From positions 4,382 through 68,381 of the forward strand of contig JAWLBL010000005.1 in NCBI GenBank assembly GCA_041687695.1: 64,000 bases of DNA, given 5' to 3'. Below the pieces are notes generated by a model that was given only the letters and a program-made list of their open reading frames with translations, was not told where the DNA came from and did no database searches. Source of the stretch: Myxococcota bacterium. Lineage in GTDB: Bacteria > Myxococcota_A > UBA9042 > PHBI01 > JAWLBL01. The position numbers and the translations under genes are program-made. Below, one piece after another: positions 29,206 through 46,599 of this stretch (positions are counted from its first letter, which is position 1; the number at the start of each line of letters is the position of its first letter).

Positions 29206-30204
29206 CTATGTGATGATGTGGGCCATCCCTGCGTCGGCACCAAAGATGTTCGACTTGTGGTAATCCAGATAGCGCTTGAGCGGCGCACCTCTTGGTGGCG
29301 CGATGAGGTTGTCGGCCAGATTAGGAGCCCCAAAGTAATAGCTGACGCGGGTGTCACTGGCCATGCTGACGTTGAGGGGGCCGGCGCGGTGGATGCGATA
29401 GCCGCCGTTGACGGTGATGAGGCCCGAGTCGAAGGCGCTGTCGTGGACGGGACAGGCGGCAATGCCGTTGCGGGGATCGAGACGCTCGCGGTCGGTGGAG
29501 ACGGCCCAGGGCTTGATGTGTGACGCGATGATGAGGCCGGAGCCGGGGAGCGAGCGGGGGGCGAAGCCGCAGAAGCCGCAGGCGTGGCCGTAGTTCTGTA
29601 GGACATCGCGGGCGAAGCGATGCTGACCGAGGCGGGCCTTGTGCTCGACCAGGCGGGTGGTCTCGCGGGTCGAGAAGTCGAAGGCCTGGCTGAGGTCGCG
29701 GACGTGCTGTTCTTGCTGGTGAAGGAGCGTCTCGAGTTCCTTGGAGCCGATCTCGTCTTGGCCGAGGAGGGTCAGGTCGGAGTCGAAAGCGCCGAGGAAG
29801 TCGGGCAGGTCATCGGGGCTGATTCCGAGGCTCCAGCCGGCCTTGAGGATGCGAACGTAGAGTTCGGCGTAGAGGCGCTGGTCGACGGAGAGGCGGACGA
29901 AGACCTCGGGCTCGTGTCGGCCGGCGTTGGTGCGCGAGCCGTCGAGGTTGAGCATCTTGTTGGTGAGCGAGCCGGGGGTTCGCTTCAGCAGGCCGGCGAG
30001 TCGGTGGACCTCGGGAGGGAGGGTGTGGATGTTGGCCCCGCCGTATTTGTTGGGGCTGATGAGGAAGAAGAGGCCGTAGCATAGGAGGACCTCGATGGGG
30101 AGGAAGGTCTCCTGGCGAGGCTTGGGCGTGCGGTCGAGGATGCGGCGCCATTGGCGGGCAGCTTCGGACTCGGTGACCTCGAGGTAATCGGCGACTCGCG
30201 ACAT
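29206..30204 (-). CDS. HNH endonuclease (putative modification-dependent restriction enzyme)
   Basis: 'RLGQHRFA..V..NY...CGFCG...ASHIKPW...NGIAACPVHDSAFD'. Confidence 0.88.
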   Translation of the reverse strand: MSRVADYLEVTESEAARQWRRILDRTPKPRQETFLPIEVLLCYGLFFLISPNKYGGANIHTLPPEVHRLAGLLKRTPGSLTNKMLNLDGSRTNAGRHEPEVFVRLSVDQRLYAELYVRILKAGWSLGISPDDLPDFLGAFDSDLTLLGQDEIGSKELETLLHQQEQHVRDLSQAFDFSTRETTRLVEHKARLGQHRFARDVLQNYGHACGFCGFAPRSLPGSGLIIASHIKPWAVSTDRERLDPRNGIAACPVHDSAFDSGLITVNGGYRIHRAGPLNVSMASDTRVSYYFGAPNLADNLIAPPRGAPLKRYLDYHKSNIFGADAGMAHIIT

Positions 30205-30276
30205 GCCGTTACCCTGCCATGCGGGAGGGCGGGGCGCCAGAGGGGCCGTGATGCTTGGGTTGCAGGAGCGTGCGCA

Positions 30277-31428
30277 TCAGGCGGCTTGCAGGACGCGGCG
30301 GATGGCGTCGGGGTCGGCGGGGATGAGGTCGGGGCCGTGGTGCCAGAGGAAGGCGTCGTCGCGGAGGCGGAGGTAGAGGCCGCGGGCGACGCCGAGGGTG
30401 CGTGTGGGGGCGGTCTCCCAGTTGGTGGAGGCGGCGAGGGCCTGGAGCTCGGGGGCGAGGGTGGAGGAGGGGCCGAAGCGGGCGGACCAGCGGGTGACGT
30501 GCTCGGGGGCGGCGAGGAAGTCGCGCTTGTGGGCGTTGCAGCGGCGGTCGGCCAGGACGAGGTTCTCGATGGCGTCGTCGGGGTAGCGGGCCCAGGGGAT
30601 GAAGTGGTCGACCTCGGCCGAGTCGGGCAGGCGCTTGTCGCAGTAGAAGCAGCGGTTGTCCTGGAGGTCTCGGAGGCCGGGCTGGAGGACGGCGGTCGAG
30701 CGGCGGTCGGTGCCGAAGAGGAAGGCCTCGAGGCGGGACTCGTGGAGCTTGTTGATGTGGGCGACGAGGCGGGCCCACTCGCGGTGGATGAGGGGGCGGA
30801 GGAGGCCGTTGAGGAGGACGAGGTGCTCGGCGACGCCCGGGAGGAGGTGGATGCGGTTGTCGAAGTCGGTCGAGCCGGGCGGGACGGGGCCGTGGCGGAG
30901 GGCGCGCTGGTAGGCGGTGACGGAGGCCTTGTTGCGCTCGATGGAGAGGTCCCAGGCGATGCGGTAGACGAGCTCGCGGTGGAGGCGGCCGACGACCTGG
31001 AGGCGGGGGAGCGGCATGAGGATGAGGGTCCACTCGACCTTGTCGACCAGGGAGAGCCAGCGGGTCGGGGAGGCGAGGCGGGCGCGGTGGAGGGTGCGGG
31101 CGGCCTCGCCGGAGGAGGCGCGGAAGGAGAGGATGTCGGAGACGATCTTGGCTTGGCCGGAGGTGTTCTGCTTGAGGGGGGCGAGGCCGTCGGGGAGCTG
31201 GTAGTCGGCGGTCTGGGGCCAGTAGAGGTCGATGACCTTCTCGGCGAGCTGGCGGGTGGTGAGGACGTCGGGGGGCGCGCCGGTGCGGGTGGTGCCCTCG
31301 AGGCAGAGGTCGATGAGGCCGAGGAGGACGGCGTACTTGTAGGTCGCGACGAAGCCGCCCTGGTCGAGGAGCTGGAGGACGCTCTCGGCGAAGCGGATGG
31401 TGGCGTTGGGGTCGTGGGGGGCGGTCAC
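30277..31428 (-). CDS. HNH endonuclease with N-terminal TYK domain
   Basis: 'ATYKYAVL' and 'CFYC...VDHFIPWA...ENLVLADRRCN'. GTG start overlaps the HIT stop. Confidence 0.88.
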   Translation of the reverse strand: MTAPHDPNATIRFAESVLQLLDQGGFVATYKYAVLLGLIDLCLEGTTRTGAPPDVLTTRQLAEKVIDLYWPQTADYQLPDGLAPLKQNTSGQAKIVSDILSFRASSGEAARTLHRARLASPTRWLSLVDKVEWTLILMPLPRLQVVGRLHRELVYRIAWDLSIERNKASVTAYQRALRHGPVPPGSTDFDNRIHLLPGVAEHLVLLNGLLRPLIHREWARLVAHINKLHESRLEAFLFGTDRRSTAVLQPGLRDLQDNRCFYCDKRLPDSAEVDHFIPWARYPDDAIENLVLADRRCNAHKRDFLAAPEHVTRWSARFGPSSTLAPELQALAASTNWETAPTRTLGVARGLYLRLRDDAFLWHHGPDLIPADPDAIRRVLQAA

Positions 31429-31868
31429 GGGGTCGGGTCGGGGCGGCGGGGGATGTGGCCGGGGCGCTTGTAGTTGCCTTGGGCGGGGATGACGAAGCGG
31501 ACGCCTCCGGTGGGGTCGTCGACGTCGCCCTGGTAGCGGGGGATGACGTGGACGTGCAGGTGCATGACGGTCTGGCCGGCGGCGGGGTGGACGTTGATGC
31601 CGATGTTGTAGCCGTCGGGGGCGTGGGAGGCGTCGAGGGAGCGCTTGACGTCGCCGACGAGGGCGAAGAGGGCGCGCTGCTCGTCGGGGGTGGCGTCGAA
31701 CCAGGTGGGGACGAGGCGCTTGGGGATGACGAGGGTGTGGCCGGGGGAGACCGGGAAGCCGTCGCGGAGGGCGAAGGCGAGGTCGTTCTCGGCGACGCGG
31801 TCGGAGGCCGGGCGGTCGAGGAAGACGGAGGAGGCGGGCGGCGGGGCGGAGGGGGTCGTCGTCGTCAT
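31425..31868 (-). CDS. HIT family nucleotide hydrolase (intact copy, 147 aa)
   Basis: 'DGFPVSPGHTLVIPKR' and 'GYNIGIN...AAGQTVMHLHVHVIPRY.GD' histidine triad. Confidence 0.93.
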   Translation of the reverse strand: MTTTTPSAPPPASSVFLDRPASDRVAENDLAFALRDGFPVSPGHTLVIPKRLVPTWFDATPDEQRALFALVGDVKRSLDASHAPDGYNIGINVHPAAGQTVMHLHVHVIPRYQGDVDDPTGGVRFVIPAQGNYKRPGHIPRRPDPTP

Positions 31869-31904
31869 GGGGGCGAGGATGGACCAGGGGGGCGCGGGGG
31901 GCAA
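31869..31904 (-). promoter_or_regulatory. Candidate sigma70-type leaderless promoter of HIT
   Basis: TTGCCC-17 bp-CATCCT-7 bp-ATG with no RBS. Conserved in copies ending at 34499, 37465 and 39336; degenerate at ~42913. Confidence 0.5.
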
Positions 31905-32003
31905 CGTTGTCGGTTACCTGGTTGTGCCCCGGCGGGAGCGTCGGTCCCGAGTCGAAAGAGCAAGACCTGGGCCGCAGCTGACGTCAGGCCCAGGGGCAGG
32001 TCG

Positions 32004-33434
32004 TCATCGGTGAGCCGGCGTGCGCAAGCCCCGACACCACCTGGACACGCGGTCCCGCTCGCGCGACGAGAGGATGGCCCATGCTGGGCCGTTACGGATC
32101 TGCCAACCCAGAACCTCGTTCGAGACGCCGTAGCGGGTGCGGAGGAGGTTTGCAGCATCATCGAAGGAGCTCGCCTCGGCGATGGCGCGGAAGGCGGTCT
32201 CGCGGGGCAGCAGGAACTCGGCGGCGAAAGCGCGCGCCCGCTGCTCGAGGTGCTTGGGCGTCGAACCTCCGACGACATCGACGACTGGGAGGTGCCGAGT
32301 GCGGTCGATGAGCAGGTGTGCGATCTCGTGGCACAGGGTGGCACGCCGACCGCTGCTGGACCCGGCGTGACGCCCCTTGGGGTTGAGCAACACGGCGGGG
32401 CCGTGGCGAGCGCCCCAGACGGCGACGGCGTCCAGCTCGCGCTCCAGAGGCGGGAGTTCGTCGATACCGACAGCCCAGCCTGCCAGGAGCTCTTCCGGAG
32501 AGACCCGGTCGTCGTGGATGTCGAGGACGGTGCGGAGCCACTGCGCGAGGACGTAGCCCTGTTGGTGAGGGGGGGCCGCGCCCACCGCGTCGAGCACGGC
32601 CTGGGCCCCACGAGCCAGGTCATCGAGGATGGGCGTCGAGTAGAGGGGTTGGTCGGAAACAGCAAACACGACGGCGCGCCGAGTCGAGTCTGAGAGAGGT
32701 TGGCTGAGACGTGCAGCCGCTGATACGGGGCTCTCCATCGGGTCCGCCGGGTCTCCCCACCAGGTCTCAGGGTCCGCTCCGGCAGGCGTCCAGTCGGCGC
32801 GCCGCTCGGCGTCGAGCCCGGTCCGCCAATCCAAGATCCGCGATCGAGACGGCGCACGGCGATCCCAGCGGGCGAACGCCGCCATCGCCCTTGGTGCGGC
32901 CTCGGCGCCGAGGTGAGCGCGAAGCTGCGAGACGGCTCCTTCTAGAACGCGGAGCGTTTCCTGGTACGGCAACCACAGGGCGAGGTCCCGCGTGCGCAGG
33001 CGGAACCCGAGCCCCTCGCGGACGAGCCACACGGGAGGGAGAGTGAGGCCCTTCAAGCCGGCTGCGAGGTCGTGTCGGTGCTGGTAGGCATGGACCGCGT
33101 CTTCGACGACCAGCGGGTCTGCGCCCTGTGCGGTAGCAAGGACCGAAGGAGACCTCAGCTCGTCGAACTCCACGTTAGGCAACCCGAAGGGTGGCTGGTC
33201 TTCGTGCAGCAGATGGCCCCAGGCGCGCGCAAGGTGCTCGACGAGGTCGATCCAGGTCCATGCGACCGGCCGCTCTGGATCGTCGCCGCTCCAATGACGC
33301 AGCCCTCCGACCCATAGCACGAGGCCTCCCCAAGCGAGGCCCTGGACATCCTTCGGGATGTCGCGGCTCCAAGAGAAGTCGAACGCCAGGTGAGCGCGGT
33401 CTCCGATCACGGCTCGCTGTGCTTCTTCAGCCAT
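32004..33434 (-). CDS. Protein with C-terminal ImmA/IrrE metallopeptidase domain
   Basis: 'RRATLCHEIAH...EQRARAFAAEFLLP'; overlaps the upstream small gene. Confidence 0.82.
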   Translation of the reverse strand: MAEEAQRAVIGDRAHLAFDFSWSRDIPKDVQGLAWGGLVLWVGGLRHWSGDDPERPVAWTWIDLVEHLARAWGHLLHEDQPPFGLPNVEFDELRSPSVLATAQGADPLVVEDAVHAYQHRHDLAAGLKGLTLPPVWLVREGLGFRLRTRDLALWLPYQETLRVLEGAVSQLRAHLGAEAAPRAMAAFARWDRRAPSRSRILDWRTGLDAERRADWTPAGADPETWWGDPADPMESPVSAAARLSQPLSDSTRRAVVFAVSDQPLYSTPILDDLARGAQAVLDAVGAAPPHQQGYVLAQWLRTVLDIHDDRVSPEELLAGWAVGIDELPPLERELDAVAVWGARHGPAVLLNPKGRHAGSSSGRRATLCHEIAHLLIDRTRHLPVVDVVGGSTPKHLEQRARAFAAEFLLPRETAFRAIAEASSFDDAANLLRTRYGVSNEVLGWQIRNGPAWAILSSRERDRVSRWCRGLRTPAHR

Positions 33435-33820
33435 CGCTCGAAGATCTCCTGGGTCCCTTCCTTGGCCGCGCGCTTTCGGAGCTCCTCGCGGATGCTTCCC
33501 GGCATGCGTCCGCGCCAAGGATAGCCGTGGTAGCTCCGACCTGCCAGCGTGGTCACAGCCTTATAGGGAACACCGCGGTAGACGTTGTAAATCGCGTCGG
33601 GGCCATCCACGAGGTCGTCTTCATAGAGCGAGGGCTCGGGGATGCCGGTCCGGAGCAGCGTTTGCGCCAGGTCATCCGTGATCGAGTTGTGGCACTTGCC
33701 GACCTGGCCGCGTTTGGATGGGAGGAAGCCGGCTTCATCGCGGTTCCAGCAATGCTTGGTGCGGCCTTCGCCCCGTTCATAGGTGAAATGCTTCAGGTCG
33801 TGGTGTTCAGGCCACTCCAT
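33407..33820 (-). CDS. Small hypothetical protein, candidate toxin (KH...GKC...YHGYP motifs)
   Basis: Coding-like ORF coupled to the ImmA gene; toxin role is an inference. Confidence 0.6.
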   Translation of the reverse strand: MEWPEHHDLKHFTYERGEGRTKHCWNRDEAGFLPSKRGQVGKCHNSITDDLAQTLLRTGIPEPSLYEDDLVDGPDAIYNVYRGVPYKAVTTLAGRSYHGYPWRGRMPGSIREELRKRAAKEGTQEIFERWLKKHSEP

Positions 33821-33897
33821 GACGAGTCCCTCGGCCAAGTGGGAGGCCGTCTCGGGTTAGCATGCGGGACTCCGTCGCGCAACAGCCTGCTGAAGGG

Positions 33898-34499
33898 CGG
33901 GGCGGCGGGGGATGTGGCCGGGGCGCTCGTAGTTGCCAAGCGGGACTCGAGCCTCCGAACCAAGGCCGAGCTCGTCTCCCCGCTTGGCGACCCGCAAGGT
34001 GCGCGCGCTAAGCGCGCGCGGACGCTTTCGAATGCCGCCCGCCGCGGTTCGCGGACGGGCGGATCGGATTGCCCTGGGCGGGGATGACGAAGCGGACGCC
34101 TCCGGTGGGGTCGTCGACGTCGCCCTGGTAGCGGGGGATGACGTGGACGTGCAGGTGCATGACGGTCTGGCCGGCGGCGGGGTGGACGTTGATGCCGATG
34201 TTGTAGCCGTCGGGGGCGTGGGAGGCGTCGAGGGAGCGCTTGACGTCGCCGACGAGGGCGAAGAGGGCGCGCTGCTCGTCGGGGGTGGCGTCGAACCAGG
34301 TGGGGACGAGGCGCTTGGGGATGACGAGGGTGTGGCCGGGGGAGACCGGGAAGCCGTCGCGGAGGGCGAAGGCGAGGTCGTTCTCGGCGACGCGGTCGGA
34401 GGCCGGGCGGTCGAGGAAGACGGAGGAGGTGGGCGGCGGGGTGGAGGGGGTCGGCGTCGTCATGGGGGCGAGGATGGACCAGGGGGGCGCGGGGGGCAA
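33898..34499 (-). pseudogene. HIT copy 2, near-identical, disrupted near its 3' end by a 131-bp insertion
   Basis: 34069-34499 matches 31474-31904; 33898-33937 matches the HIT 3' end (~31440-31478). Confidence 0.9.
33938..34068. mobile_element. 131-bp structured insertion flanked by TTGCC direct repeats
   Basis: TTGCC at 33933-33937 and 34069-34073, but only once at the matching site in the intact gene. Three internal hairpins. Confidence 0.55.
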
Positions 34500-34510
34500 G
34501 GTGGGCCGTG

Positions 34511-35602
34511 TCAGGTGTAGGTCCTTGCAGCCCCGGTGGCTTCGACGTGACTGGTTCCGTCCGCGCGGAGGCGAATCGTCACGCGGCTGGGGCCTGCGCT
34601 CGTGGGCGCGGGGGTCCAGCCGGCCTGGAGGCATTTGGCGTGGGCGTGGCCGGCGGTGAGAGCGAGTGTTTCGGCGCGGGGGCGGAGCCGGTCGAGGACG
34701 ACCTGGTGCGGTAGCTGGGACCTGGCGAAGGGCGTGATGACCGCGATGCGGGTCTTGTCCGGGCTCGCGTGGAGGTCCCAGGCTTCGTCCAGCCAGGCGT
34801 GCCTGGAGCCGTGGTGGGGCACGCTCACGACGTGGACGTTGGTGAGGGTGTCGGCCTCGCCGCCGCGGGTCAGCTCGCGTAGGACGCCCCGCCAGCCGCG
34901 GGTCGGATTGGTTGGTGCCTCCACGTCGCCGCCGAGGAGGATCTTCCAGCCGCTCCAGCGCAGGACCAGGCCGAGGGAGACGAGATTGGGGTGGTCGCCC
35001 GGGCTCCGTTCACCCGTGAGGCGCTTCAGGGTGTTGTCGGCGATGGCGGGACGCTCGCCTCGCCACTCGACGATGTTCTGGAGCTGTCTGCGAGAGGCGT
35101 TCAGGTCGGCCGGAAGCGGGGCGATGACCGCGACGGAGGCGCCATCCGGCTGCCAGGCACGCTCCTTGGAGTTGAAGGCGACGTCGAGGCAGCGGTTGTC
35201 TCGAGCGAGCTGGTCCAGCCTCTCGAGTGCTGCGGCGAGGCGGCGCTGGCTGGGCGAGCGGCCGCCCCAACGGGTGAGGAGGTCTCGGACGAGCGATAGC
35301 GTGGGCCAGGTCCACGCGAGACGGACATCGAAGCGGCGAAGTAGAACGTCGAGGCCGTCGACGTGGTCGAGGTCCGGGTGCGTGACGATGAGGTGGTCGA
35401 TGGTCGTGACCCCGAGGTCATCGAGGAGGTCTCCCGTGAGAGAGCGGCCCTCGTGCTCGCAGCAATCGACGACGAGTGTGAGGCCGGACGGCAGACGAAT
35501 CACGGTGGATTCGCCGAAGCCCGGACCGAGGAAGTGGAGGGTCAGCTCCGGGGCAGGCGGTGACGCGGGGGCGCTGGGCGGGGGATCAGACCTCGAGGCC
35601 AT
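34511..35602 (-). CDS. MBL-fold metallo-hydrolase (ComEC/Rec2-like)
   Basis: 'G.GES', 'THPDLDHVDG', 'LLGGD' and 'VPHHGS' motifs. Confidence 0.88.
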   Translation of the reverse strand: MASRSDPPPSAPASPPAPELTLHFLGPGFGESTVIRLPSGLTLVVDCCEHEGRSLTGDLLDDLGVTTIDHLIVTHPDLDHVDGLDVLLRRFDVRLAWTWPTLSLVRDLLTRWGGRSPSQRRLAAALERLDQLARDNRCLDVAFNSKERAWQPDGASVAVIAPLPADLNASRRQLQNIVEWRGERPAIADNTLKRLTGERSPGDHPNLVSLGLVLRWSGWKILLGGDVEAPTNPTRGWRGVLRELTRGGEADTLTNVHVVSVPHHGSRHAWLDEAWDLHASPDKTRIAVITPFARSQLPHQVVLDRLRPRAETLALTAGHAHAKCLQAGWTPAPTSAGPSRVTIRLRADGTSHVEATGAARTYT

Positions 35603-37061
35603 CGCCTTGACTCCGCGCCGGTAGCCGCTTGTGCTCGAGGCCGGCGAGCCAGGGGTAGTCCGCCAGGAGGTCTGCCCAGATCTCCGCGGCCAGGGCCTTG
35701 CGGGCCGGGAGGATGAGCCATCGGGCGTGGTCGCGGCCGTGAAGCGCAACGGTCCGCGCCAGGTGCTCGCGGAGCTCGGAGCGGACGTCACGCCCCAGGC
35801 GGGCGTCGAAGCCGAGGCGTCGGCCGTGATAGAGCGGATTGTACGAGTCGGCGTCGGCGAGGCGGCAGGAGCTCAGGTAGGCGTCGGCGATCTGCCGGTC
35901 GAGGGTTTCGTCCGGGGCCGTCCGCGAGCGCTCGAGATTGAACCCGAGGTACTGCCATGCGTAGGCGTCCTCGGCATCGAACCTGGAGACGATCGTCGCG
36001 TACACCGCGGCGGCCTCACGGTAGAGCGCCGGCCGCCGGGCAGCGTGCGCGCGGTGACTGAGTTGGGCGGCGATGACGCGGAGGTCACTTGCGTAAAAGC
36101 GTGCAGTATCGAGCGCTAGCTGGAGGCTCCCGCCGAGGATGGCCTGTCGGTGGGCTTCGAGCGCGGCCTCGGGATCGCGGTTGGATTGTAGAGTGCGCGC
36201 CAGCTCGGAGCGCAGGAGTTGCGTCTCATCGCGGGCGACCAGGGCCTGCCTTCGTGCCAGCCGGTCGCGGAGGGGAGCGGCGATGGCCACGGTGCCGTTG
36301 CCGAGCTGCGTGAGTGCTCCCGACCTTCGGAGCAGGTTGATGGCGGCGCTGGAGAGTCGCCGGAGGCCGTCCTCGCCGGGTCCGAAAGGGCCGATGACGC
36401 CATTGATGGGATGTGCCTCGCGCAGGAGGGCCAAGCGGCGTAGCGAGGTGCGGGTCTCGGGATCCAGGAGATCCTCGTAGGCCGCGACGAGGGCGTCGTC
36501 GGGATCGTCTGCGCTACTGAGGAGCCTATGGAGGTGGTTGGCCTCGGCTCGTCCTTCGGCGACCATCCAACGCGCGAGGGGCCACAGTGCTGGGGCGACG
36601 TCGGGGAGCTCGGCAGAGGCGACGTGTTCGGTCGCGGTCGCGATGCGCCGGGCGTCCATGGCCTCGGTCACTTCAGGGCGGGGAGCGGACCTGACGAAGG
36701 TCCAGCCGTGCTCGGCGCCGAAGTCGAGAACGCTGGAGAAGAACTGGGCGCGTTCGCGCTGATTGGTCGCGTCGTCGAAGACGGCCTGTCCGGTGGGCGG
36801 AGACAGGTAAGCGGCGTCGGGATCGATGAGCGCAAGCGGAGCGTTGCCGCGCGTGCGAAGGGACTCGAAGGCGGCGGCGGCGCGCGCACGCCAGGGGGTG
36901 GCAGGATCGACAGCCTCGTCGCGCGCTTCGCCTGGGGCTCCCGCGTGGAGGGCCAGCAGAACGGAGAGGCGCAGGTGCGCGTCGTTCCCGTCACGGACCA
37001 GGACGGCGGGGACATCGGGGGGGACATCGACGCGGTCGGTGATTTGGGCGCGGCCGGTCAT
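35586..37061 (-). CDS. Hypothetical protein (491 aa) with C-terminal TPR-like helices
   Basis: ATG at 37061; 'DAYAWQYLGFNL' TPR-like segment; overlaps the MBL gene. Confidence 0.65.
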   Translation of the reverse strand: MTGRAQITDRVDVPPDVPAVLVRDGNDAHLRLSVLLALHAGAPGEARDEAVDPATPWRARAAAAFESLRTRGNAPLALIDPDAAYLSPPTGQAVFDDATNQRERAQFFSSVLDFGAEHGWTFVRSAPRPEVTEAMDARRIATATEHVASAELPDVAPALWPLARWMVAEGRAEANHLHRLLSSADDPDDALVAAYEDLLDPETRTSLRRLALLREAHPINGVIGPFGPGEDGLRRLSSAAINLLRRSGALTQLGNGTVAIAAPLRDRLARRQALVARDETQLLRSELARTLQSNRDPEAALEAHRQAILGGSLQLALDTARFYASDLRVIAAQLSHRAHAARRPALYREAAAVYATIVSRFDAEDAYAWQYLGFNLERSRTAPDETLDRQIADAYLSSCRLADADSYNPLYHGRRLGFDARLGRDVRSELREHLARTVALHGRDHARWLILPARKALAAEIWADLLADYPWLAGLEHKRLPARSQGDGLEV

Positions 37062-37117
37062 GGCCGGACCATAGCGCCATGGGAGGTGGGGCTCAATGGG
37101 TAGCGACGGTGGGCTGG

Positions 37118-37465
37118 GGGCGCGGGGGGGATGCGGCCGGCGGCGGGGTGGACGTTGATGCCGATGTTGTAGCCGTCGGGGGCGTGGGAGGCGTCGAGGG
37201 AGCGCTTGACGTCGCCAATGAGGGCGAAGAGGGCGCGCTGCTCGTCGGGGGTGGCGTCGAACCAGGTGGGGACGAGGCGCTGGGGGATGACCAGGGTGTG
37301 GCCGGGGGAGACCGGGAAGCCGTCGCGGAGGGCGAAGGCGAGGTCGTTCTCGGCGACGCGGCCTTCGGCCGGGCGGTCGAGGAAGACGGAGGAGGTGGGC
37401 GGCGGGGTGGAGGGGGTCGGCGTCGTCATGGGGGCGAGGATGGACCAGCGGGGGGCGGGGGGCAA
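37118..37465 (-). pseudogene. HIT copy 3 with internal deletion removing the histidine triad
   Basis: 37136-37465 matches 31575-31904; 37118-37140 resembles the HIT 3' end, joined at GGCCGG. Confidence 0.88.
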
Positions 37466-37495
37466 TGGGGCGAGGGCTGGTCCTTTCGGACGCGC

Positions 37496-38476
37496 TCAAG
37501 CTGCGAAGGGGAGACTGTTCGCGACGTCGCACTCTGCCGAGTCCAGAGAGGTGGGGGCCTGGGTTGGCGTCCCTCCGAGCCACGCGAATGGAAGAGGATG
37601 CGTGGCGCCGCTTCGGATGGCTTCACGGAACTCCAGAGCGGCCCGAGGCGGCTGGCCAAGGGCGACGTAGGCGATGCCCCTGAGGAGATGAGGCTCGAAG
37701 CGCTCCGGAGCCATGCGTTGGGCTCGCTCGAGCCACTCGAGCGCACAGTCCAGGTTCCCCATCCGCCGGTAGATGATCGCCAACTCGAGCGAGGCACCAA
37801 AGCTGATGGCCGCGACTGGGCTGTCGTCGTGCGATGCCAGAGCTCGCTCCAGGACGGCTGCTGCCTGCTCGAAGAGGTCGGTCTGTTCGCGGCCAGGCGG
37901 CAGCTCGATGGCCCGTCGGAAGAGCACGTCAGCAGCGCGCATCGTCAGGCGCGGATTCGCGTGCGGGTTGGCAAGGATTCCCTGGGCGCGCTGGACGGCT
38001 TCTTCGGTTCGGTTGGCGCGAACCAGGTAGTCCAGACCAACGATGACGTAAGTGGGTCGAGCGGTGGTCATGCGCGCCGCATGATCGATGAACTCGATCG
38101 CCGCGTCGTACAGCCCCAACCCGGCCCATGCGCGCGCACGGCAGTAGGCTCGAATGTCTTCGTCGACGACATGCTGCAGGCGGCGAGCAATCTCGAGGAC
38201 CTGGCGCCAATCCCCCTGCCGCAGCGCCTCCGCCAGCATTGGAGGGTTGGCAGGCTCCGCATGTTCTGGGTTGTTCGTCTCATCGCCAGTCAGCGAGTAC
38301 AAGTCCGCGGAGAGGCCATGGACGATTGGGAGGTCGTCGGGTGACAGTTGATCCCAGGTCTCGTGCATGGCATCGCGCAAGGCATCCGCCTCATCCGTAT
38401 CGCCAAGCCCCTCACGGATGAGTCGATGCAGTTCGAGAGTCTGCTTGATGTGTTGGAAGAGTGGGCTCACTTCCAT
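37496..38476 (-). CDS. TPR-repeat protein
   Basis: Several TPR-like helical pairs (e.g. 'ELAIIYRRMGNLDCALEWLERAQRMAP'). Confidence 0.8.
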   Translation of the reverse strand: MEVSPLFQHIKQTLELHRLIREGLGDTDEADALRDAMHETWDQLSPDDLPIVHGLSADLYSLTGDETNNPEHAEPANPPMLAEALRQGDWRQVLEIARRLQHVVDEDIRAYCRARAWAGLGLYDAAIEFIDHAARMTTARPTYVIVGLDYLVRANRTEEAVQRAQGILANPHANPRLTMRAADVLFRRAIELPPGREQTDLFEQAAAVLERALASHDDSPVAAISFGASLELAIIYRRMGNLDCALEWLERAQRMAPERFEPHLLRGIAYVALGQPPRAALEFREAIRSGATHPLPFAWLGGTPTQAPTSLDSAECDVANSLPFAA

Positions 38477-38482
38477 CCCTCC

Positions 38483-38905
38483 TCATGGTCCTTGCTCATC
38501 GATGAACCAGTCGGCACGCGTTCCCGCGAGCGCACGTTCATAGTCGCTGAGTTGCATTGGCACGACGGGCCCGACAACGCCATGACCTGGTCTGTCGACA
38601 CAAAGCAACAAGCTTGAAGTGAGTGGTCCTGATTCCCACACGCTGTCCCTGAGACGCCATACGTGTGTGCGGTCGTTGCCCGTGGCGCCCGGAACCAAGT
38701 GACGCAGTCGTCGCGGGACGGCAAACGGTGGAAGGTCGCGAAGCGTAGGAGCTACCGACATTCCACGACAGGGCTCCGTGGGCTGAACCGCGCCGGTGGC
38801 GTCGGGGCTGATGTCCTTCGGGACGCGAACGCCCAACTTGTCGGCTCCGCGTCCCACGAGAGGGCCGCCTCCGTCACGCCGCATCCCACGCAGGACCCGC
38901 GACAT
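38483..38905 (-). CDS. Tse2-like ADP-ribosyltransferase-fold toxin
   Basis: 'LRGM...LGVRVPKDI...GMSVAP...HGVVGP..PM.LSDYERAL..TR..W' shows the R/S/H pattern of Tse2-family ARTs. Confidence 0.65.
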   Translation of the reverse strand: MSRVLRGMRRDGGGPLVGRGADKLGVRVPKDISPDATGAVQPTEPCRGMSVAPTLRDLPPFAVPRRLRHLVPGATGNDRTHVWRLRDSVWESGPLTSSLLLCVDRPGHGVVGPVVPMQLSDYERALAGTRADWFIDEQGP

Positions 38906-39004
38906 ACGATACCTCCTCGCGGCTTACGCCCGGAGCCTAACACCTGCGGCCGCCCGAGGCGACAACCTTGCGGTCATGAGCCACGGGACGGTCGTGAGGG
39001 GGCT

Positions 39005-39336
39005 TCGATGACCTTCTCGGCGAGCTGGCGGGTGGTGAGGACGTCGGGGGGCGCGCCGGTGCGGGTGGTGCCCTCGAGGCCGAGGTCGATGAGGGCGAAG
39101 AGGCCGCGCTGCTCGTCGGGGGTGGCGTCGAACCAGGTGGGGACGAGGCGCTTGGGGATGACGAGGGTGTGGCCGGGGCTGACCGGGAAGCCGTCGCGGA
39201 GGGCGAAGGCGAGGTCGTTCTCGGCGACGCGGTCGGAGGCCGGGCGGTCGAGGAAGACGGAGGTCGCGGGCGGCGGGGTGGAGGAGGTCGGCGTCGTCAT
39301 GGGGGCGAGGATGGACCAGCGGGGGGCGGGGGGCAA
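39005..39336 (-). pseudogene. HIT copy 4 (5' half) fused to a fragment of the neighbouring HNH gene
   Basis: 39090-39336 matches HIT; 39005-39094 matches 31229-31318 (HNH N-terminus). Confidence 0.9.
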
Positions 39337-39364
39337 TGGGGTGGTGAGCCGGCGAGAGCCGGTG

Positions 39365-40126
39365 CTACGCCGGACGACGGCGCGGTGGCGGGGCCGTCAC
39401 GGACCTGAGGTCCGCGGTGAGGTCACGAAGGTCCTGAGGCAGGTAACCTTGCTGGTCGATGTTGGCGCGCTCGTCGGCATTCAACGCTGGGGCGAGGGCG
39501 GCTTTCTCGACGCGCCAAGAGGCGTAGCGTGGATGGGCTGTCAGGAACCGAGCGATGTGCGAGTCGAAGTGAGCCAGGTGCGAGAGCAAGCGGCCGGATG
39601 AACGCTTGCACGTACCGAAACGGATGATCTGCGAGTCCTCGTCGAGCGCCACCAGATCGATCTCGGTATCGCTGCGGTCCCAGTAGCCCTGGATGCGGTG
39701 CGTCAGGGAGAAGTCACCTATGCCTTTGCGGGCGCGCTCCTCGTAGAGCTGGGCCACAAGACGTTCAAATCCGTATCCTTCGGAGCTCGCGAGTCGTTCG
39801 TCGGCCATGTCGACGAGGATCTCCTCGGGGCGGAAGTTGAGCGCCGACACCGGGCTGGAGAGTGCGTCGAGCCATGCTCGGAGAAAGTTGTCCCTGATGT
39901 AGTAGCGGCTGCGGCGGGCGCGCGGCGCGGCAAAGATGGGGAGGCGCTTTTCCACCATCCGGTACTTCTCGAGGAGGATCTTGAGGTAGCCCCCTACCTG
40001 CTCGGCGGTCTCGGGGCTGACTGCGCGAACGTGGGCCTCGACGTCGCCGTGGGTGCATCCTGGATGGCGGGCCACGAACTTCAGGACGACGTCATAGTCA
40101 TCGTTCGCTCCGCGATGCCGACCCAA
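39365..40126 (-). pseudogene. C-terminal fragment of archaeal-type ATPase/DUF234 protein (N-terminal ATPase missing)
   Basis: 'YYIRDNFLRAW' and 'GYWDRSDTEIDLVALD...FGTCKR'. No Walker A and no good start. Confidence 0.7.
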
Positions 40127-40206
40127 CTTAAGAAGTTTTCAGTTAGCGGGCGGACGGGCGCAAGAGCTTGATTCGATGCGGGGAATCGTGCTGACGGAGT
40201 GGCGGC

Positions 40207-40325
40207 CCGGGGGAGATGGGGAAGCCGTCGCGGAGGGCGAAGGCGAGGTCGTTCTCGGCGACGCGGCCTTTGGCCGGGCGGTCGAGGAAGACGGAGGACG
40301 GGGGCGGCGGGGTGGAGGGGGGCAT
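40207..40325 (-). pseudogene. HIT copy 5 (short 5' fragment)
   Basis: Encodes SVFLDRPAKGRVAENDLAFALRDGFPISPG. Confidence 0.85.
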
Positions 40326-40331
40326 GGCGGC

Positions 40332-40943
40332 TCAGCGGGCGGTGGAGGAGGACCGGCCGCGGGAGAGGAGGTCGTCGTTCACCTGGGGCCAGGGCGCGGG
40401 GTCCCAGTTCTCGATGACCTGGGAGAGGACCCAGTCGAGGGCCTCGGCTGGGGTGAGGGCCGGGAGAGGGACGCGAACCTTGGGAGGCGTGTCGAGGTCG
40501 GGTCCGACGTGGCCGTGGAGGGCGGCGTGTCCGCAGGCGCCGCTGCCCTGCTGGTCGGCCGTGTTCGTGTCCGGGTCGCGGCCCGCGTCGGGGAGGTGAA
40601 CGGCCACGGTCCAGGGAGAGTCGTCGTGGCGGCGGCCCTCGAGCATGATGTTCAGCTGGTAGAGGTGGCCGCGGCGGAGATCGAGCTGGACGAGGACGCT
40701 GAGTCTGGCTTGCGGGAGGTGCGGGAGGCCGCGAAGGGGCTCGGTGCGATCCGGACGTCCGGCGATGTAGTACGAGTGACGATTGCCCGTACCGCGCTCG
40801 TGCGTGAAGCGGCCGCGGATGTTCGTGTCGCAATGCCCGCGCTCGGCAAGGTTCATGAGGCGCTGTCGGATTTGTCCGGTCACTTCGCGCGAAACGGAGC
40901 GGATGGAGCGATGCTCCAGGTAGAGGTCGACCCAGCGCTTCAT
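40332..40943 (-). CDS. Hypothetical protein (203 aa)
   Basis: ATGA overlap with the upstream gene; 'CGHAALHGHVG' His cluster. Confidence 0.65.
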   Translation of the reverse strand: MKRWVDLYLEHRSIRSVSREVTGQIRQRLMNLAERGHCDTNIRGRFTHERGTGNRHSYYIAGRPDRTEPLRGLPHLPQARLSVLVQLDLRRGHLYQLNIMLEGRRHDDSPWTVAVHLPDAGRDPDTNTADQQGSGACGHAALHGHVGPDLDTPPKVRVPLPALTPAEALDWVLSQVIENWDPAPWPQVNDDLLSRGRSSSTAR

Positions 40944-41482
40944 GAGCGCTCCAGGAGGATGGCCCTGTAGGCGATGGCAAAGTTCTCGGCCGTGTGTGGG
41001 ACCTGGTCGGCTCTCCACGAGGCGAGCCACTGTTCGGGGGACAGATGATAGCGGGCCTCGAACTCGGCGCGCTCGTGCTCGACGTCCAGGGTCGCCTGGT
41101 GCTCGGGGTCGGACTCGCTGCCGGCGAGCCAGCTCGAGAGGCTCGGGGCCTCTTCATTGAGCGCACGCCAGCCGTCGCCCTTGCGGAGGAGGAAGAGGAC
41201 GAGGGGGCCTGCTCGGTCGACCTGCAGGAGCTGGTCTCGGCGGCCGTCGAGCTCGAGGACGGCCGCTCTCTCGTCCGTTGGAACGAGGAGCGCCGTGGAC
41301 TCGTGAGCGGCGATGGCGTCCGAGACGGTGCTGACGACGCAGGGAGGCGCGTCGGGGGACGCGAGGCTGGCGACCTCGTCGACCAGCCAGTCTCGGAGCG
41401 CGAAGTCGGGGAACCAGACGAGCGCCACGCCGCCTGCGTCACGCTCGAGGGCGTTGACCAGGTTGGCGACGGGATCGGTCAT
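40940..41482 (-). CDS. Hypothetical protein (180 aa), ATPase partner
   Basis: Coupled by ATGA overlaps on both sides. Confidence 0.7.
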   Translation of the reverse strand: MTDPVANLVNALERDAGGVALVWFPDFALRDWLVDEVASLASPDAPPCVVSTVSDAIAAHESTALLVPTDERAAVLELDGRRDQLLQVDRAGPLVLFLLRKGDGWRALNEEAPSLSSWLAGSESDPEHQATLDVEHERAEFEARYHLSPEQWLASWRADQVPHTAENFAIAYRAILLERS

Positions 41483-42720
41483 GGCGCGGCCTGCGGCTCG
41501 GGCGTGAGGAGCGGGCGCACGAGGGGGTGGGGTCGCATCACCGTGCGGCCCTTCTCCGTGCGTTCGAGCAGGATGGCGTGGGCGAGTAGGCGGACCTTGC
41601 GGGCGAGGTCCATCTCGCGGCCATCGGTGCCGTCGACCAGGCGGAGGGCTTCGGTGTCGCCTGGGAGGAGCGCGCGGAGGAAGCTGGCCTCCATGTCGCG
41701 CCCGGCTTCTTGGAGGTGGGGTTGAACGACCGGCCAGTCGGTGCCCCAGGTCTGGCGCGCATAGGTGCCGGCGTCGGCGACGAGCTGGAGGAACATGCGG
41801 GGGAGGCCGCCGCTGAGCTCGGCGGCGTGGCGGAGCAGGGCATGAAACTCGGCAGGAATGGAATGGTCAGCTGCCAGGAACGACAATATGTTGTCGTCGA
41901 GGCCGTCGGCGGCAAGAGAATGCGCCCTCAGTCCGAGCCGAGCTTCGAGGATCCTGACCAAAAACCCTCGCCCCTCGAAGTCGCCTTCGGCCTCGACCGG
42001 CACGGCCTGCATGACAACGAGCTTCTCTCCGGGCCGCATGACGTCTTCGGCAAGGGGACCGTAGACGGCTTGCCAGGGGACGACGGCGACCAGGTCCACG
42101 CTCTCGGAGAGCGCGCCGAAGGCCTGGAGGACGGCCTTTGCGCCCTCGCCTGCCTTCTCCAGACCGTCGATGAGCAGTGTCACTCGGCGCTGGCGTGAAG
42201 CGTTCGCGACCTCGTCCACGATGGAGCGCAGGAGGACGGCTTCGGAGGCGCGTACGGCTTCGGCTTCCGCCGTCTCCGAGTGGGTCTGCGGCAAGACGCC
42301 GCTTTGCACCAATGCGGCTCGAAGGGGCGCGGAGATGGGGAGATGGAGTGCGTCGCGTGCGAGCTCTGCGAGGCGTCCTGCGGCACGCAGCTGGGCCCGC
42401 TCGGGCGTGAGCTCGCGCATGTTCTCGAAGCGGTCGAGTTGAACCAGGCAGGCGACTCGCTCGCGCTGGAGGAGCTTGGCCGCGTGCGCCAGCTCGGTGC
42501 TCTTTCCGACACCGACGGGGCCCCCGACCAACACCGTAGCCACACCGGAGACGACCGTATCGGCGAGCCGCCGCGCGACCTCGTTGGGAGGTGGCGCATA
42601 GCGAGCGTCGTCGACCCCGAGCGGTCGGTGGGGCGTCAGGCTTCGCCAGTCCGGCTGCATGGAGACCTCTTGCACGTCCGACTCGCCGGGAACCTTAGCG
42701 CCGAGCGGGCGCGGTGTCAT
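41479..42720 (-). CDS. P-loop ATPase (STAND/AAA-like; start may be 42660)
   Basis: GPVGVGKST Walker A, LLIDGLEK Walker B, 'SGGLPR' and C-terminal 'HPLV'. Confidence 0.8.
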   Translation of the reverse strand: MTPRPLGAKVPGESDVQEVSMQPDWRSLTPHRPLGVDDARYAPPPNEVARRLADTVVSGVATVLVGGPVGVGKSTELAHAAKLLQRERVACLVQLDRFENMRELTPERAQLRAAGRLAELARDALHLPISAPLRAALVQSGVLPQTHSETAEAEAVRASEAVLLRSIVDEVANASRQRRVTLLIDGLEKAGEGAKAVLQAFGALSESVDLVAVVPWQAVYGPLAEDVMRPGEKLVVMQAVPVEAEGDFEGRGFLVRILEARLGLRAHSLAADGLDDNILSFLAADHSIPAEFHALLRHAAELSGGLPRMFLQLVADAGTYARQTWGTDWPVVQPHLQEAGRDMEASFLRALLPGDTEALRLVDGTDGREMDLARKVRLLAHAILLERTEKGRTVMRPHPLVRPLLTPEPQAAP

Positions 42721-42800
42721 GTCGGATGCGGCCCAAGGTAGGGGGAGACGGAGCCGGCTCGGGGCTCATGGCGTGCGGTGGACTCGCTCGTCTGCTTGGG

Positions 42801-42918
42801 CTCGGCGACGCGGCCGGAGGTCGGGCGGTCGAGGAAGACGGCAGGACGCGGGCGGCGGGGTGGAGAAGGTCGTCGGCAAGGGGGGAGGATGGATCAGGGG
42901 GGCGCGGGGGCGATGGGG
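42801..42918 (-). pseudogene. HIT copy 6 (most degenerate 5' fragment plus promoter region)
   Basis: CTCGGCGACGCGG..GGCGGTCGAGGAAGACG..GAGGATGGA.CAGGGGGGCGCGGGGG matches 31788-31904 with many substitutions. Confidence 0.8.
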
Positions 42919-43331
42919 TGAGGGGGCGATGCAGGGCAAGCGCAAAGTCTCAGGTGGCTCGCCACGCCTTGCATTGGGCGCGGCTAGCCGCGCTCGGCCG
43001 GAGCACGAGCGAGCTCGCGCAGTCCGATCGACGGCCTCCGGGGTGGATTCGGGGCGGCGAGCCTCGACGGCCCGGCGTAGCTCGCCGAGGCTCGTGGGGC
43101 GCGGAGTTCGCTGCGCACGACGCTGGAGGGACTTTGCGATGAGCTGGAGGGCGATGAGGGCCAGCGCGTGGCCATGGCGGACAACCTGGAGTCAGTGGCG
43201 GATTCGGCGCAGCAAGCTGCGCCGCGCCGGGGCTCCACCAAGGTGGAGCACTCCGGGGGGCGCTTGCGCGGGGCTCGGTGGCCGAAGCGGCTCGTGCGTC
43301 GCGGGAGACGCGCTCATCGGACGGGGCCGGG

Positions 43332-46300: not shown

Positions 46301-46466
46301 GGCGCGCGAGGGCGACGTGGGCGTCGCCGGGGTCGAGGGGCTCGGTGTGGGCGGTGGCCGAGGCGGGGAGCGCGCGGAGGCGGCGGTCGAGGGCCTCGGT
46401 GACCAGGGCCTCGTACAGCCCGGGAGGGAGCGCGTCGGGGGCGAGGTCGTCGGAGCCTTGCGTCAC
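43332..46466 (-). CDS. SauUSI-like type IV restriction enzyme: PLD nuclease + SF2 helicase + DUF3427
   Basis: PLD 'LHAKAW...GSSN', helicase 'ATGTGKT', 'DEFHH', 'LTATPER', 'QQLGRGLR', and DUF3427 'REGV...LFFITL.K...Y.DY...FHWQSQS'. Confidence 0.92.
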   Translation of the reverse strand: MTQGSDDLAPDALPPGLYEALVTEALDRRLRALPASATAHTEPLDPGDAHVALARHLHHLLTRALRGRPDEQAALHQRVLAVLRDARRAPDDGDALALPARQLLAITEARPLAPSAPPDRPTTVLSGSALLTNAHGEPSIGAELRRELASADRVDVILAFVRWYGLRTLESALVAHLRDRGRPLRLLTTTYMGVTERRALDRLHELGAEIRVAMDERDTTRLHAKAWLFHRASGYSTAYVGSSNMSRSALLDGLEWNVRLSNTEAPHLLDKFRATFDSYWLSEAFQPYDPARDAPRLDRALARHQPAPTLSFVHLDVEPRPHQREILDALRLERERHGRTRNLVVAATGTGKTVVAALDYRRLVQAHGDLKLLFVAHRKELLLQTLHTFRAVLRDGAFGELFVAGARPDAWRHVFASVQSLDALGPDDLPPAHFDMVIVDEFHHAAAPTYRRLLDRLQPRYLLGLTATPERADGQSVLPFFGDRIAAELRLWEALDRQLLCPFQYFGLSDNTDLRHVSWRRGGYAAEDLTNLYTGDHARVALVLAALRAKLPDVHQMRAIGFCVSVDHARFMAAQFTAAGLPSLAVSADTPAAERDAALTRLARRDLNALFAVDLYNEGVDVPQVDTLLFLRPTESATVFLQQLGRGLRFSDGKTCCTVLDFIGRQRKEFRFDLRYAALSGASRRALTEVIEHGFPYLPAGCHFELDPVARETILAHIKASLPTTTRRFADELRAVAQRLGPTVTLADFLRETLLEPEDLYRSRGWSWTTVRREAGLPTPPPGPDEAPLLRSLATLLHVDDPERCQTYRRVLAAPAPPDLSALSERDRRLLAMLHFGLRGSRDAWPSLQASLDDLWRHPAVLAELTQLLDVLDARSQAPHQPLPLSPAPLHVHGRYTRDEIIAAFARLDPTRPTPPREGVFYDPGTRTDLFFITLHKTERHFSPTTRYEDYPLTPELFHWQSQSTTTPDSPTGRRYLTHRDTGSHILLFVRDAKKDPRKLTAPYLFLGPADLVDHQGSRPISITWRLRTPMPLPAFEAAKVVAG

Positions 46467-46564: not shown

Positions 46565-46599
46565 TGCACGAAACTTAACTGAGAGTTGAGTTTCGTGCA
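46565..46599 (+). promoter_or_regulatory. Inverted-repeat operator overlapping promoter and start of AbiEi gene 1
   Basis: TGCACGAAACTTAACT-GAG-AGTTGAGTTTCGTGCA (16-bp arms, 1 mismatch). Confidence 0.7.

Follow-up and report, generated by a model that had tools for sequence, protein, structure and literature searches.

Organization of the HIT array

The 64,000-nucleotide stretch of contig JAWLBL010000005.1 analyzed here (the window; Myxococcota bacterium, assembly GCA_041687695.1) harbors an array of defense-type genes in which the front end of one HIT hydrolase gene is present six times between 31.4 and 42.9 kb, always in the same orientation. We designated these copies H1 to H6 and measured them by blastn against the intact gene, H1. 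One copy is intact (H1), one is near-complete (H2), and four are stubs (H3–H6). Six co-oriented copies at about these positions had been reported in a first-pass annotation made from the sequence alone, and the blastn comparison confirmed them. A HIT repeat in six copies far exceeds chance.

The array lies ~40 kb inside a 325-kb contig (C5) of an 8-Mb genome with ~70% GC (63 contigs, 99% complete), and the best relatives of its HIT gene are from Myxococcota. Every array gene is carried by the minus strand. In the direction of transcription, a gene for a fused PLD–helicase–DUF3427 protein is followed by a 421-nt spacer, H6, cargo A, H5, cargo B, H4, cargo C, H3, cargo D, H2, cargo E, and H1, the intact HIT gene, which leads into HNH, HNH_2, and a SIR2–kinase fusion gene (Table 1). 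The GC content at third codon positions (GC3) separates the frame of this array from its contents. The helicase (0.98), HIT (0.98), and HNH (0.99) genes are close to one another and the stub open reading frames (ORFs) reach 0.92 to 0.95, whereas the scored cargo genes range from 0.74 to 0.87 (the genes for the 491-aa protein and the Tse2-like protein were unscored) and HNH_2 has 0.85. On the basis of this separation, the helicase, HIT, and HNH genes look like one resident unit that received foreign modules.

Table 1 Features of the HIT array in the direction of transcription. Positions refer to the window, H1–H6 are the HIT copies, offsets are counted from the HIT start codon, and identities are to H1 unless another sequence is named.
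Feature	Position	Strand	Match or evidence
PLD nuclease, SF2 helicase, and DUF3427 in one protein, 1044 aa; upstream flank of the array	43332..46466	-	GC3 0.98
Spacer from helicase stop to H6	42911..43331	-	Built of two genome-wide interspersed repeat families
H6, promoter-proximal region and first ~68 nt of HIT frame; most diverged copy	42801..42920	-	114 nt aligned at 87.7% (42801-42910)
Cargo A: AAA_16/STAND-like NTPase (41479-42720), 180-aa protein (40940-41482), 232-aa protein (40332-41030)	40332..42720	-	Pfam AAA_16 1.1e-07
H5, HIT stub, codons ~5-43	40207..40325	-	115 nt at 92.2% (40207-40321); 95.7% to H3
Cargo B: C-terminal half only of a DUF234 ATPase; 5'-truncated gene	39365..40126	-	Pfam DUF234; PADLOC PDC-S27 1.8e-92
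H4, HIT -50 to +214 fused to HNH piece	39005..39341	-	250 nt at 95.6% (39087-39336)
Cargo C: 140-aa Tse2-type ADP-ribosyltransferase-like protein (38483-38905), TPR protein (37496-38476)	37496..38905	-	
H3, HIT -50 to +295, ending just 5' of the His triad	37135..37470	-	331 nt at 96.1% (37135-37465)
Cargo D: 491-aa TPR-like protein (35586-37061), metallo-β-lactamase-fold protein (34511 to ~35580)	34511..37061	-	Frame plot
H2, near-complete HIT	33895..34504	-	434 nt at 98.8% (34069-34502) and 43 nt at 95% (33895-33937)
Cargo E: 143-aa protein (33407-33838), 504-aa protein with C-terminal ImmA/IrrE (M78) peptidase domain (32004-33518)	32004..33838	-	
H1, intact HIT gene, 147 aa, triad HLHVHV, ~38 nt of shared upstream sequence; ATG at 31868	31425..31907	-	Pfam HIT 6.6e-26; GC3 0.98
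HNH endonuclease, 383 aa; start overlaps HIT stop	30277..31428	-	Pfam HNH_4 1.3e-09; GC3 0.99
HNH_2 endonuclease, 332 aa; third gene of HIT-HNH-HNH_2	29206..30204	-	Pfam HNH_2 1.4e-09; PADLOC HNH 2.6e-31

Common 5' limit, variable 3' ends, and mosaic variation of the HIT copies

A common 5' limit, 38 to 50 nt before the ATG, is shared by H2, H3, H4, and H6, the exception among the shortened copies being H5. The match of H1 and H2 begins at about -38 nt (TTGCCCCCCGCGCCCCCCTGGTCCATCCTCGCCCCC-ATG), and that of H3, H4, and H6 at about -50, with ~12 nt more in common. H5 matches only from about codon 5 (+12), its own ATG being positioned 6 nt past the stop codon of the 232-aa gene of cargo A, and the ATG of H6 was lost through a 4-nt deletion. 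No two shortened copies have the same 3' end; the ends lie at +68, at +128, at +214 with the HNH piece added, at +295, and near the end of the gene; the stub ORFs stop shortly past the joint. The 5' end is retained in each of the five decayed copies, and no 3' piece of HIT, HNH, or HNH_2 lacking the 5' part is present among them. The identity to H1 declines with distance in the order H2 to H6 (98.8, 96.1, 95.6, 92.2, and 87.7%), as does the length of the copies, so that the polar shrinkage and divergence described in the first-pass annotation, with the sixth copy the most diverged, holds at this locus. A blastn search of the organism's own genome showed no additional HIT copy at more than 86% identity over 40 nt. 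The arrangement TTGCCC-17-CATCCT-7-ATG was considered as a leaderless promoter and set aside, as no tool supports it.

The individual copies also differ in what remains of the coding region. H2 had been taken for a HIT fragment, a description that needs correction: it keeps the whole HIT core including HLHVHV and has a replaced C-terminal tail, with homology stopping 9 nt before the HIT stop codon. The HIT core pattern HxHxHxx is present as HLHVHVI in H1 and H2 and is missing from H3 and H4. Close to its 3' end, H2 carries a 131-nt insert (33938-34068) that is unique in the genome and may be filler left by a repair event. GGCAAT and GGCAAC flank this insert, in which a GC-rich hairpin (GCGCGCGC-TTA-GCGCGCGC) is present. 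Internal deletions joined at microhomologies had been suggested for the third and fourth copies. In H4, a deletion leading from HIT +214 into HNH is indeed joined at a ~10-nt microhomology, CCTCATCGAC, whereas H3 is a single ungapped 331-nt match. The retention of an HNH piece in H4 was likewise recognized early, and this piece (102 nt of the HNH gene at 96.1%, 39005-39106) indicates that HNH, at least in part, originally belonged to the repeated unit. As H4 has the HNH piece and H2 reaches near the HIT stop codon, the duplicated block most likely represents resident HIT(-HNH) sequence broken at arbitrary points.

Variation among the copies is mosaic. The site patterns are reticulate and incompatible by the four-gamete criterion, with columns 78 and 83 uniting H3 and H4, column 136 uniting H2 and H3, and column 138 uniting H4, H5, and H6, and a 5-nt block is common to H3 and H5 and missing from H4, which lies between them. 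These incompatible patterns point to recombination among the copies. H1 and H2 differ at five sites (+390, +34, +22, +10, and -36), and the 355 nt between +34 and +390 are identical. Codon differences of the stubs H3 to H6 from H1 comprise 24 non-synonymous and 5 synonymous changes, an excess that is expected of drifting pseudogenes. The closest foreign HIT among 5.8 billion proteins is 75 to 76% identical, compared to 88 to 99% nucleotide identity among the copies, and the six copies therefore form one lineage. Their history fits pseudogene drift with gene conversion or allele exchange among copies.

Cargo modules and the native partners of HIT

Each copy is followed in the direction of transcription (minus strand, towards lower coordinates) by different genes, as the first-pass annotation had proposed. 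Its inclusion of HNH and HNH_2 among the cargo did not stand. Homologs of the window HNH protein are encoded behind HIT in 13 other contigs among those examined (tblastn), with HNH_2 present as well in the loci L018 and L138, and because of this recurrent pairing HNH and HNH_2 are considered native partners of the intact HIT gene. The remaining modules, cargo A to E, contain three genes, one gene (a fragment), two, two, and two genes, respectively. The leaders from a stub to the start of the first cargo gene measure 73 to 99 nt, and the distance from the last cargo stop codon to the next stub is 8 to 30 nt in four of five cases.

Cargo A is the module with the clearest relatives. Searching 401 genomes of the phylum with the 232-aa protein identified seven other loci (L142–L148), all of which contain the trio in the same order. 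Within the 6.5 to 16 kb examined at each locus, HIT is near cargo A in none of the seven; the module is not flanked by direct repeats in any of these loci, and no synteny among cargo A to E was seen in them. By these features, cargo A is an autonomous, self-contained three-gene module. The idea that cargo insertion generally leaves flanking repeats was ruled out by the same seven loci. For cargo D, relatives of the 491-aa protein were present in four other genomes (301 searched); the metallo-β-lactamase partner accompanies it in one of the three loci examined, and none of these three has HIT nearby. The expectation that cargo homologs would be found beside HIT elsewhere was thus not borne out for cargo A or cargo D, and HIT as the common first gene of varied effector operons was ruled out for both. 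Since their homologs elsewhere never adjoin HIT, the link between HIT and cargo is positional and not functional.

Domain matches in the other modules vary in strength. Cargo B covers profile positions 252 to 482 of the 484 in PDC-S27, a PADLOC candidate. In cargo C, the Tse2-type assignment is weak (Pfam ADPRTs_Tse2, 4.7e-4, 21.2 bits, below the cut-off of 26.6), and the second protein matches TPR_16 (4.7e-11). For cargo D, the metallo-β-lactamase fold is indicated by Pfam Lactamase_B (1.7e-06) together with weak PADLOC matches to PDC-M48B and LmuA, and the nearest Atlas clusters of the 491-aa protein are TPR proteins. Cargo E matches Pfam Peptidase_M78 (7.2e-10) and, weakly, the PADLOC models RmrA and CapP. 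On the basis of these mostly weak-scoring domain types and the surrounding island, the cargo may have a role in defense.

The protein encoded upstream of the array combines PLDc_2 (residues 164-280), ResIII (317-471, 1.1e-34), Helicase_C (555-650), and DUF3427 (854-1033, 2.4e-21) by Pfam, and matches the PADLOC model mREase_IV at 7.8e-284 over positions 7 to 933 of 945. With an N-terminal PLD domain, an SF2 helicase, and a C-terminal DUF3427 in one protein, it is predicted to be a SauUSI-like type IV (modification-dependent) restriction enzyme. The spacer between this gene and H6 contains a ~210-bp repeat (42916-43142) with at least 20 copies in the genome by blastn and a REP-like repeat of 52 to 65 bp (43205-43268) represented more than 150 times, frequently as tandem clusters and at contig ends; its DNA fold has a z score of -2.66. 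By blastn against the own genome, no multi-copy elements were detected within the HIT array, the spacer alone containing them. At the other end of the array, the C-terminal part of HNH_2 resembles phosphorothioate-DNA-dependent restriction endonucleases (NCBIfam PT-DNA_restrict, 5.7e-13, below cut-off).

In order to place the HIT gene in its family, we surveyed its 80 closest loci, with one genome per species, which gave 65 fused frames or next-downstream ORFs, and scanned the 38 longer ones with Pfam. HIT is fused N-terminally to a PLD/helicase protein in 12 of these 38 (some with DUF3427 or S24) and is followed by a separate PLD–helicase gene in four and by an HNH/HNH_2 protein of ~350 aa in eight; the others are one McrB-like gene, six unrelated genes, and seven with no family. 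In L017, L023, L026, L028, L079, and others, HIT forms the N-terminal domain of PLD–helicases of 1200 to 1400 aa, some of which end in DUF3427 or Peptidase_S24. The HIT–HNH pair occurs in numerous phyla that are not related to one another and in varied contexts, and its left limit, close to the promoter, is sharp. The genus and family contain this genome alone, and among the 18 genomes of the order the closest HIT is 78% identical at the protein level. Viral contigs contain 48 HIT relatives, all at 57% identity or less. An exact 20-mer scan of metagenome contigs gave 36 loci, none of which matched the genes or DNA of the region (chance matches). Our literature search, with subscription journals outside its coverage, found no description of a HIT–SauUSI-like fusion, of HIT-stub arrays in defense islands, or of HIT–nuclease pairing as a defense module. 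The sole mention of HIT met in that search concerns ThsC of Thoeris type II (PMC8565338).

Recurrence in other genomes and at a second gene

The combination of stubs, co-oriented cargo, and an intact HIT gene recurs with other cargo in three further genomes of the phylum. Stubs were found through listed matches in the 401-genome sample and a blastn re-check of the loci examined, which is not an exhaustive search. Among the 95 loci re-checked, HIT 5' duplicates were present only in L015, L133, and L134, all from the phylum sample. L015 contains three stubs (281 nt at 94.7%, 109 nt at 79%, and 39 nt at 90%) upstream of a 1349-aa HIT–PLD–helicase fusion, with co-oriented cargo between the stubs that includes a Schlafen/AlbA_2 protein, and a full DUF234 ATPase beside the array. 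In L134, two near-full copies (408 nt at 96.6%, from ~39 nt before the ATG) surround a gene for a 272-aa NADase_transloc-domain protein. L133 has one stub (166 nt, 90%) located 2 kb upstream of the intact gene. The 5' limit lies at about -39 in L134 and -46 in L015. L138 was considered as a fifth HIT array and dropped; its repeat corresponds to -115 to -30 upstream of HIT and is probably the 3' end of the neighboring gene.

We also scanned the genome for local direct repeats. After families with distant copies were removed, ~15 to 18 loci remained, and the HIT family is the largest dispersed local-only repeat in the genome when internally repetitive genes on C22 are set aside. One further locus resembles the HIT array. 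At NnrS (C15, 147811-152683; L200, 2812-7684), a 340-nt copy of the region from -84 to +256 is present 2.6 kb upstream at 100% identity, and a co-oriented gene encoding a 491-aa NADase_transloc/F5-F8-type-C protein lies between NnrS and its stub copy. Within the insert are a ~660-nt repeat that has multiple copies and a REP-like motif of 40 nt, and an IS200-like Y1 ORF, weakly supported (Pfam 7.2e-05, 23.3 bits against a cut-off of 23), is located beside the locus. This analog indicates that gene fronts other than that of HIT also receive duplicative insertions in this organism. Cargo and stubs share one orientation in all four HIT arrays and at the NnrS locus.

Comparison with integrons and other array-forming systems

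The array had been described as integron-like. It shares with integrons, and with the integrase-less attC clusters termed CALINs, a one-directional series of foreign units at a single site, a putative newest unit closest to the fixed end, and a possible platform promoter. In contrast to these systems, it has no IntI and no attC, and its repeats are 110- to 600-nt pieces of a protein gene with variable ends. A whole-genome search for tyrosine recombinases (PF00589) gave three matches, on C20, C18, and C9, and none on C5, and no integrase or transposase family was present among the 66 window ORFs scanned with Pfam. An attC site consists of imperfect inverted repeats with RYYYAAC ... GTTRRRY cores; no such core pair with a gap of 30 to 130 nt occurs on either strand of the window. 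The five cargo-to-stub boundaries show no excess of hairpins (DNA folds, z = -0.25 to +1.56 relative to shuffles), and the gaps of 8 to 30 nt between cargo and stub are too short to hold attC. No Rfam match was obtained between 26 and 48 kb at E values up to 0.1, and the window contains no tRNAs. Integron cassettes are mostly single promoterless ORFs, whereas the units here have one to three genes with leaders of 73 to 99 nt. The absence of integrase, attC, and transposase noted in the first-pass annotation was thus upheld by each of these scans, and the likeness to integrons is an analogy only. As every defining integron feature tested failed, the HIT array is not an integron.

Campbell single-crossover integration produces insertion-duplication, and islands at tRNA genes grow by tandem accretion. 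In both, direct target repeats flank the insert, and repeated events yield arrays of partial target copies, as at the HIT locus. However, accretion at tRNA islands uses an integrase and att repeats of fixed length, whereas the HIT array has no integrase and its repeats measure 110, 115, 250 plus 102, 331, and 434 plus 43 nt.

The closest parallel is found not in cassette capture but in the orphan arrays of Rhs, contact-dependent inhibition (CDI), and type VI secretion system (T6SS) effector–immunity genes, for which serial displacement via homology-facilitated illegitimate recombination has been proposed (Kirchberger et al. 2017, PMC5361080). In that proposal, a conserved stretch would serve as homology anchor for one-sided homologous plus illegitimate recombination. 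In both cases, an intact gene is accompanied by truncated copies of its constant part, each tied to a different variable module, and growth at the intact gene would push older modules away with a conserved homology anchor and no dedicated recombinase. The HIT array has the mirrored polarity, in that its stubs are 5', promoter-proximal, and upstream, whereas the orphan pieces are 3'-proximal and downstream. Furthermore, the HIT cargo consists of separate defense-type units of one to three genes and not of in-frame toxin tips with immunity genes, and the role of anchor falls to the gene for a small HIT hydrolase, part of a nuclease module. Pfam scans of the window ORFs showed no Rhs/YD repeats, VgrG, or CdiA features. 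The array can also be compared to core-flanked defense hotspots, such as the core defense hotspots of Pseudomonas aeruginosa (PMC10250203) and those of P2 and P4 (PMC9122126). Variable defense cargo of foreign composition between conserved flanks, here the SauUSI-like gene and HIT–HNH, is common to both, but the hotspots swap their cargo, and stacking with leftover stubs of a flanking gene is absent from the portions of these descriptions accessible to us. The HIT array therefore works like an orphan array while lying outside the integron, Rhs/CDI, and att-island families.

Proposed origin of the array

The explanation that we favor, with confidence that is evenly balanced, is a series of duplicative insertions, anchored by homology, beside the HIT gene. 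The defense island would have grown by repeated insertion at one spot, immediately in front of the HIT–HNH–HNH_2 module beside the SauUSI-like gene. In each event, a new module would have been placed between a left and a right copy of the HIT front part, with the left copy extending from about -40/-50 nt to a variable point in HIT or HNH and the right copy staying or becoming the working gene. The observed architecture, in which HIT front sequence up to a variable point, cargo, and HIT from its front onwards follow one another, matches the outcome of an insertion-duplication. Two routes could lead to it, single-crossover (Campbell-type) integration of a circle carrying cargo and the HIT front end, or a one-ended homologous invasion with the other end joined illegitimately (homology-facilitated illegitimate recombination). 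Older left copies, being redundant, would have become pseudogenes that were trimmed and drifted. The array could then be read as a time series with H6 as the oldest copy, H2 as the newest, and cargo E as the latest arrival; the earlier suggestion that the newest cassette lies beside the intact copy fits the monotonic fall in length and identity. The 5' truncation of cargo B agrees with this scheme, as an arbitrary left joint would give such a gene. Since the stubs keep the HIT upstream region and the cargo is co-oriented with them, the stubs may act as promoters for the cargo. The process would be the mirror image of the serial displacement proposed for the orphan arrays (PMC5361080).

Several observations weigh against this explanation. 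None of the 80 closest HIT loci has a second HIT piece, a result that held in the blastn re-check, so the insertion process would have to be rare or lineage-bound. The stub farthest from the intact gene in L015 is the longest and most similar, and the polar gradient, absent there, is therefore no general rule. Random illegitimate joints should scatter more than the neat ends of the cargo do (leaders and, in four of five cases, trailers), which hints at discrete cassettes or later trimming. Such joints also fit poorly with a 5' limit recurring near -40 to -50 in three genomes and with constant co-orientation. The neat flanks, the recurrent limit, and the co-orientation could reflect later trimming together with selection for stub-driven expression, or a more specific cassette process. 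A version with donors would need five of them with different modules in front of HIT; to our knowledge, none exists, and we know of no natural source of circles carrying a HIT piece. The cargo homologs, never found beside HIT, are contrary to this version as well. Finally, a scan for the sigma-70 consensus between 29 and 47 kb gave no promoter-like site.

Some of these points would be explained by a true cassette platform, which we nevertheless judge unlikely. The HIT upstream/5' segment would be an attachment and promoter site at which discrete cassettes are inserted, excised as stub-plus-cargo circles, and exchanged, driven by general recombination in programmed use or by an unrecognised recombinase. 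This model corresponds to the integrase-free, integron-like array of the first-pass annotation. The near-constant right-hand insertion limit (-38 to -50 in five of six copies, with similar values in L134 and L015), the tight and uniform cargo flanks, and the shared orientation of the cargo in every array are in line with such a platform, and the motif CCCCCGCGCCCCC occurs nine times in the window with at most one mismatch, compared to 2.3 expected, including an extra exact copy beyond the stub fronts at the joint of H3 and its cargo. However, neither C5 nor the window ORFs offer a recombinase candidate, the joints show no attC-like core pair or excess hairpin, the stub 3' ends vary by hundreds of nucleotides, the 5' limit is inexact (-38 versus about -50, with H5 at +12), cargo B is a broken gene, and the same cassette with its stub is seen nowhere else. 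Duplication of the target in situ with no homologous donor, by end joining after staggered breaks or by template switching with fill-in on both sides, would have an outcome resembling a very long target-site duplication. The perfect NnrS copy over 340 nt, whose 2.6-kb insert has multi-copy repeats and an IS200-like Y1 ORF beside it, is suggestive of this process, as are the clock-like fall of identity with distance, which fits copies made on the spot, the low identity of the nearest foreign HIT (75 to 76%), and the resemblance of the 131-nt filler of H2 to a repair scar. We still regard it as improbable, as the multi-nucleotide allele of H3 and H5 that is missing from H4 and H1, along with the other incompatible sites, requires added gene conversion, the joints of the HIT array have no multi-copy elements, and this process would require repeated breakage at about -40, independently in several events and genomes.

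Two further explanations were considered. HIT–HNH could be a mobile selfish nuclease element that was inserted six times into a pre-existing island, with five copies losing their 3' parts. Its distribution over numerous unrelated phyla and contexts, its sharply defined left edge close to the promoter, its composition unlike that of the cargo, and the evidence from H4 that at least one old copy included HNH are compatible with mobility. This explanation is very unlikely, given that what the five decayed copies retain is the 5' end, with no lone 3' piece of HIT, HNH, or HNH_2 among them, that L015 would need three insertions of a ~4-kb gene, each cut to 39 to 281 nt of its front, and that no synteny of cargo A to E was seen at the seven cargo A loci. 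The helicase has the same GC3 as HIT and HNH, so these genes look resident. An assembly artifact, in which strain variants of one locus were threaded serially through shared HIT sequence, is suggested by the 355 identical nucleotides of H1 and H2, which exceed short-read length, and we consider it extremely improbable. Variants, 3' joint, and flanks are particular to each stub; the locus lies well inside its long contig in a 99% complete genome; only one other pairing is available across the H1/H2 identity, and it would join cargo E to itself; and the same architecture is present in three independent assemblies.

The surrounding defense island

The rest of the window is also a defense island. 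Segments at 536-2425, 8216-11884, 18889-20001, and 46599-47925 hold a BrxC/D-like ATPase, an McrBC pair, an HTH plus M78 peptidase protein (ImmA-HTH), and two AbiEi-type regulators. The SIR2–kinase gene at the downstream end of the array (26178-29075) encodes a 965-aa fusion of SIR2_2 and a Ser/Thr kinase that matches the PADLOC PD-T4-6 and mad6 kinase models, and has a low GC content (0.56-0.58 versus ~0.70). Two genes for products of ~295 aa and 122 aa, neither with a Pfam family, make up a 1.5-kb unit that is duplicated in tandem (14848-16379 and 16409-17930, 82.6% identity). Tandem-repeat tracts are present at 1-467, 5649-6358, 18106-18678, and 55218-57680, with periods of ~150, 171, 27/54, and 276 nt; the tract with the 276-nt period lies inside a 1225-aa Ig-like repeat protein.

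Implications for the growth of defense islands

How defense islands gain and stack their systems is largely unexplained where mobile-element genes are missing. The locus described here preserves the apparent scars of five additions made one after another at a single gene, and the same gene family shows smaller versions in three other genomes. These scars offer a concrete putative mechanism, insertion anchored on the front end of a resident gene that leaves promoter-bearing stubs behind. If the stubs drive the cargo, this would also explain how foreign modules are expressed on arrival. In addition, an undescribed association emerges: across many phyla, this HIT family either is fused to SauUSI-like PLD–helicases or has an HNH nuclease of ~350 aa as its partner.

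A broader and doubtful proposal is that the HIT promoter and 5' part constitute a homology-based capture and expression platform for defense modules in Myxococcota. If this is true, stub-plus-cargo units would loop out between neighboring stubs, pass to relatives, and re-enter HIT by a single crossover, so that the cargo arrives with a ready promoter. Driven by RecA, such a platform would correspond in function to the integron and would provide ordered, shuffleable defense libraries with no dedicated recombinase.

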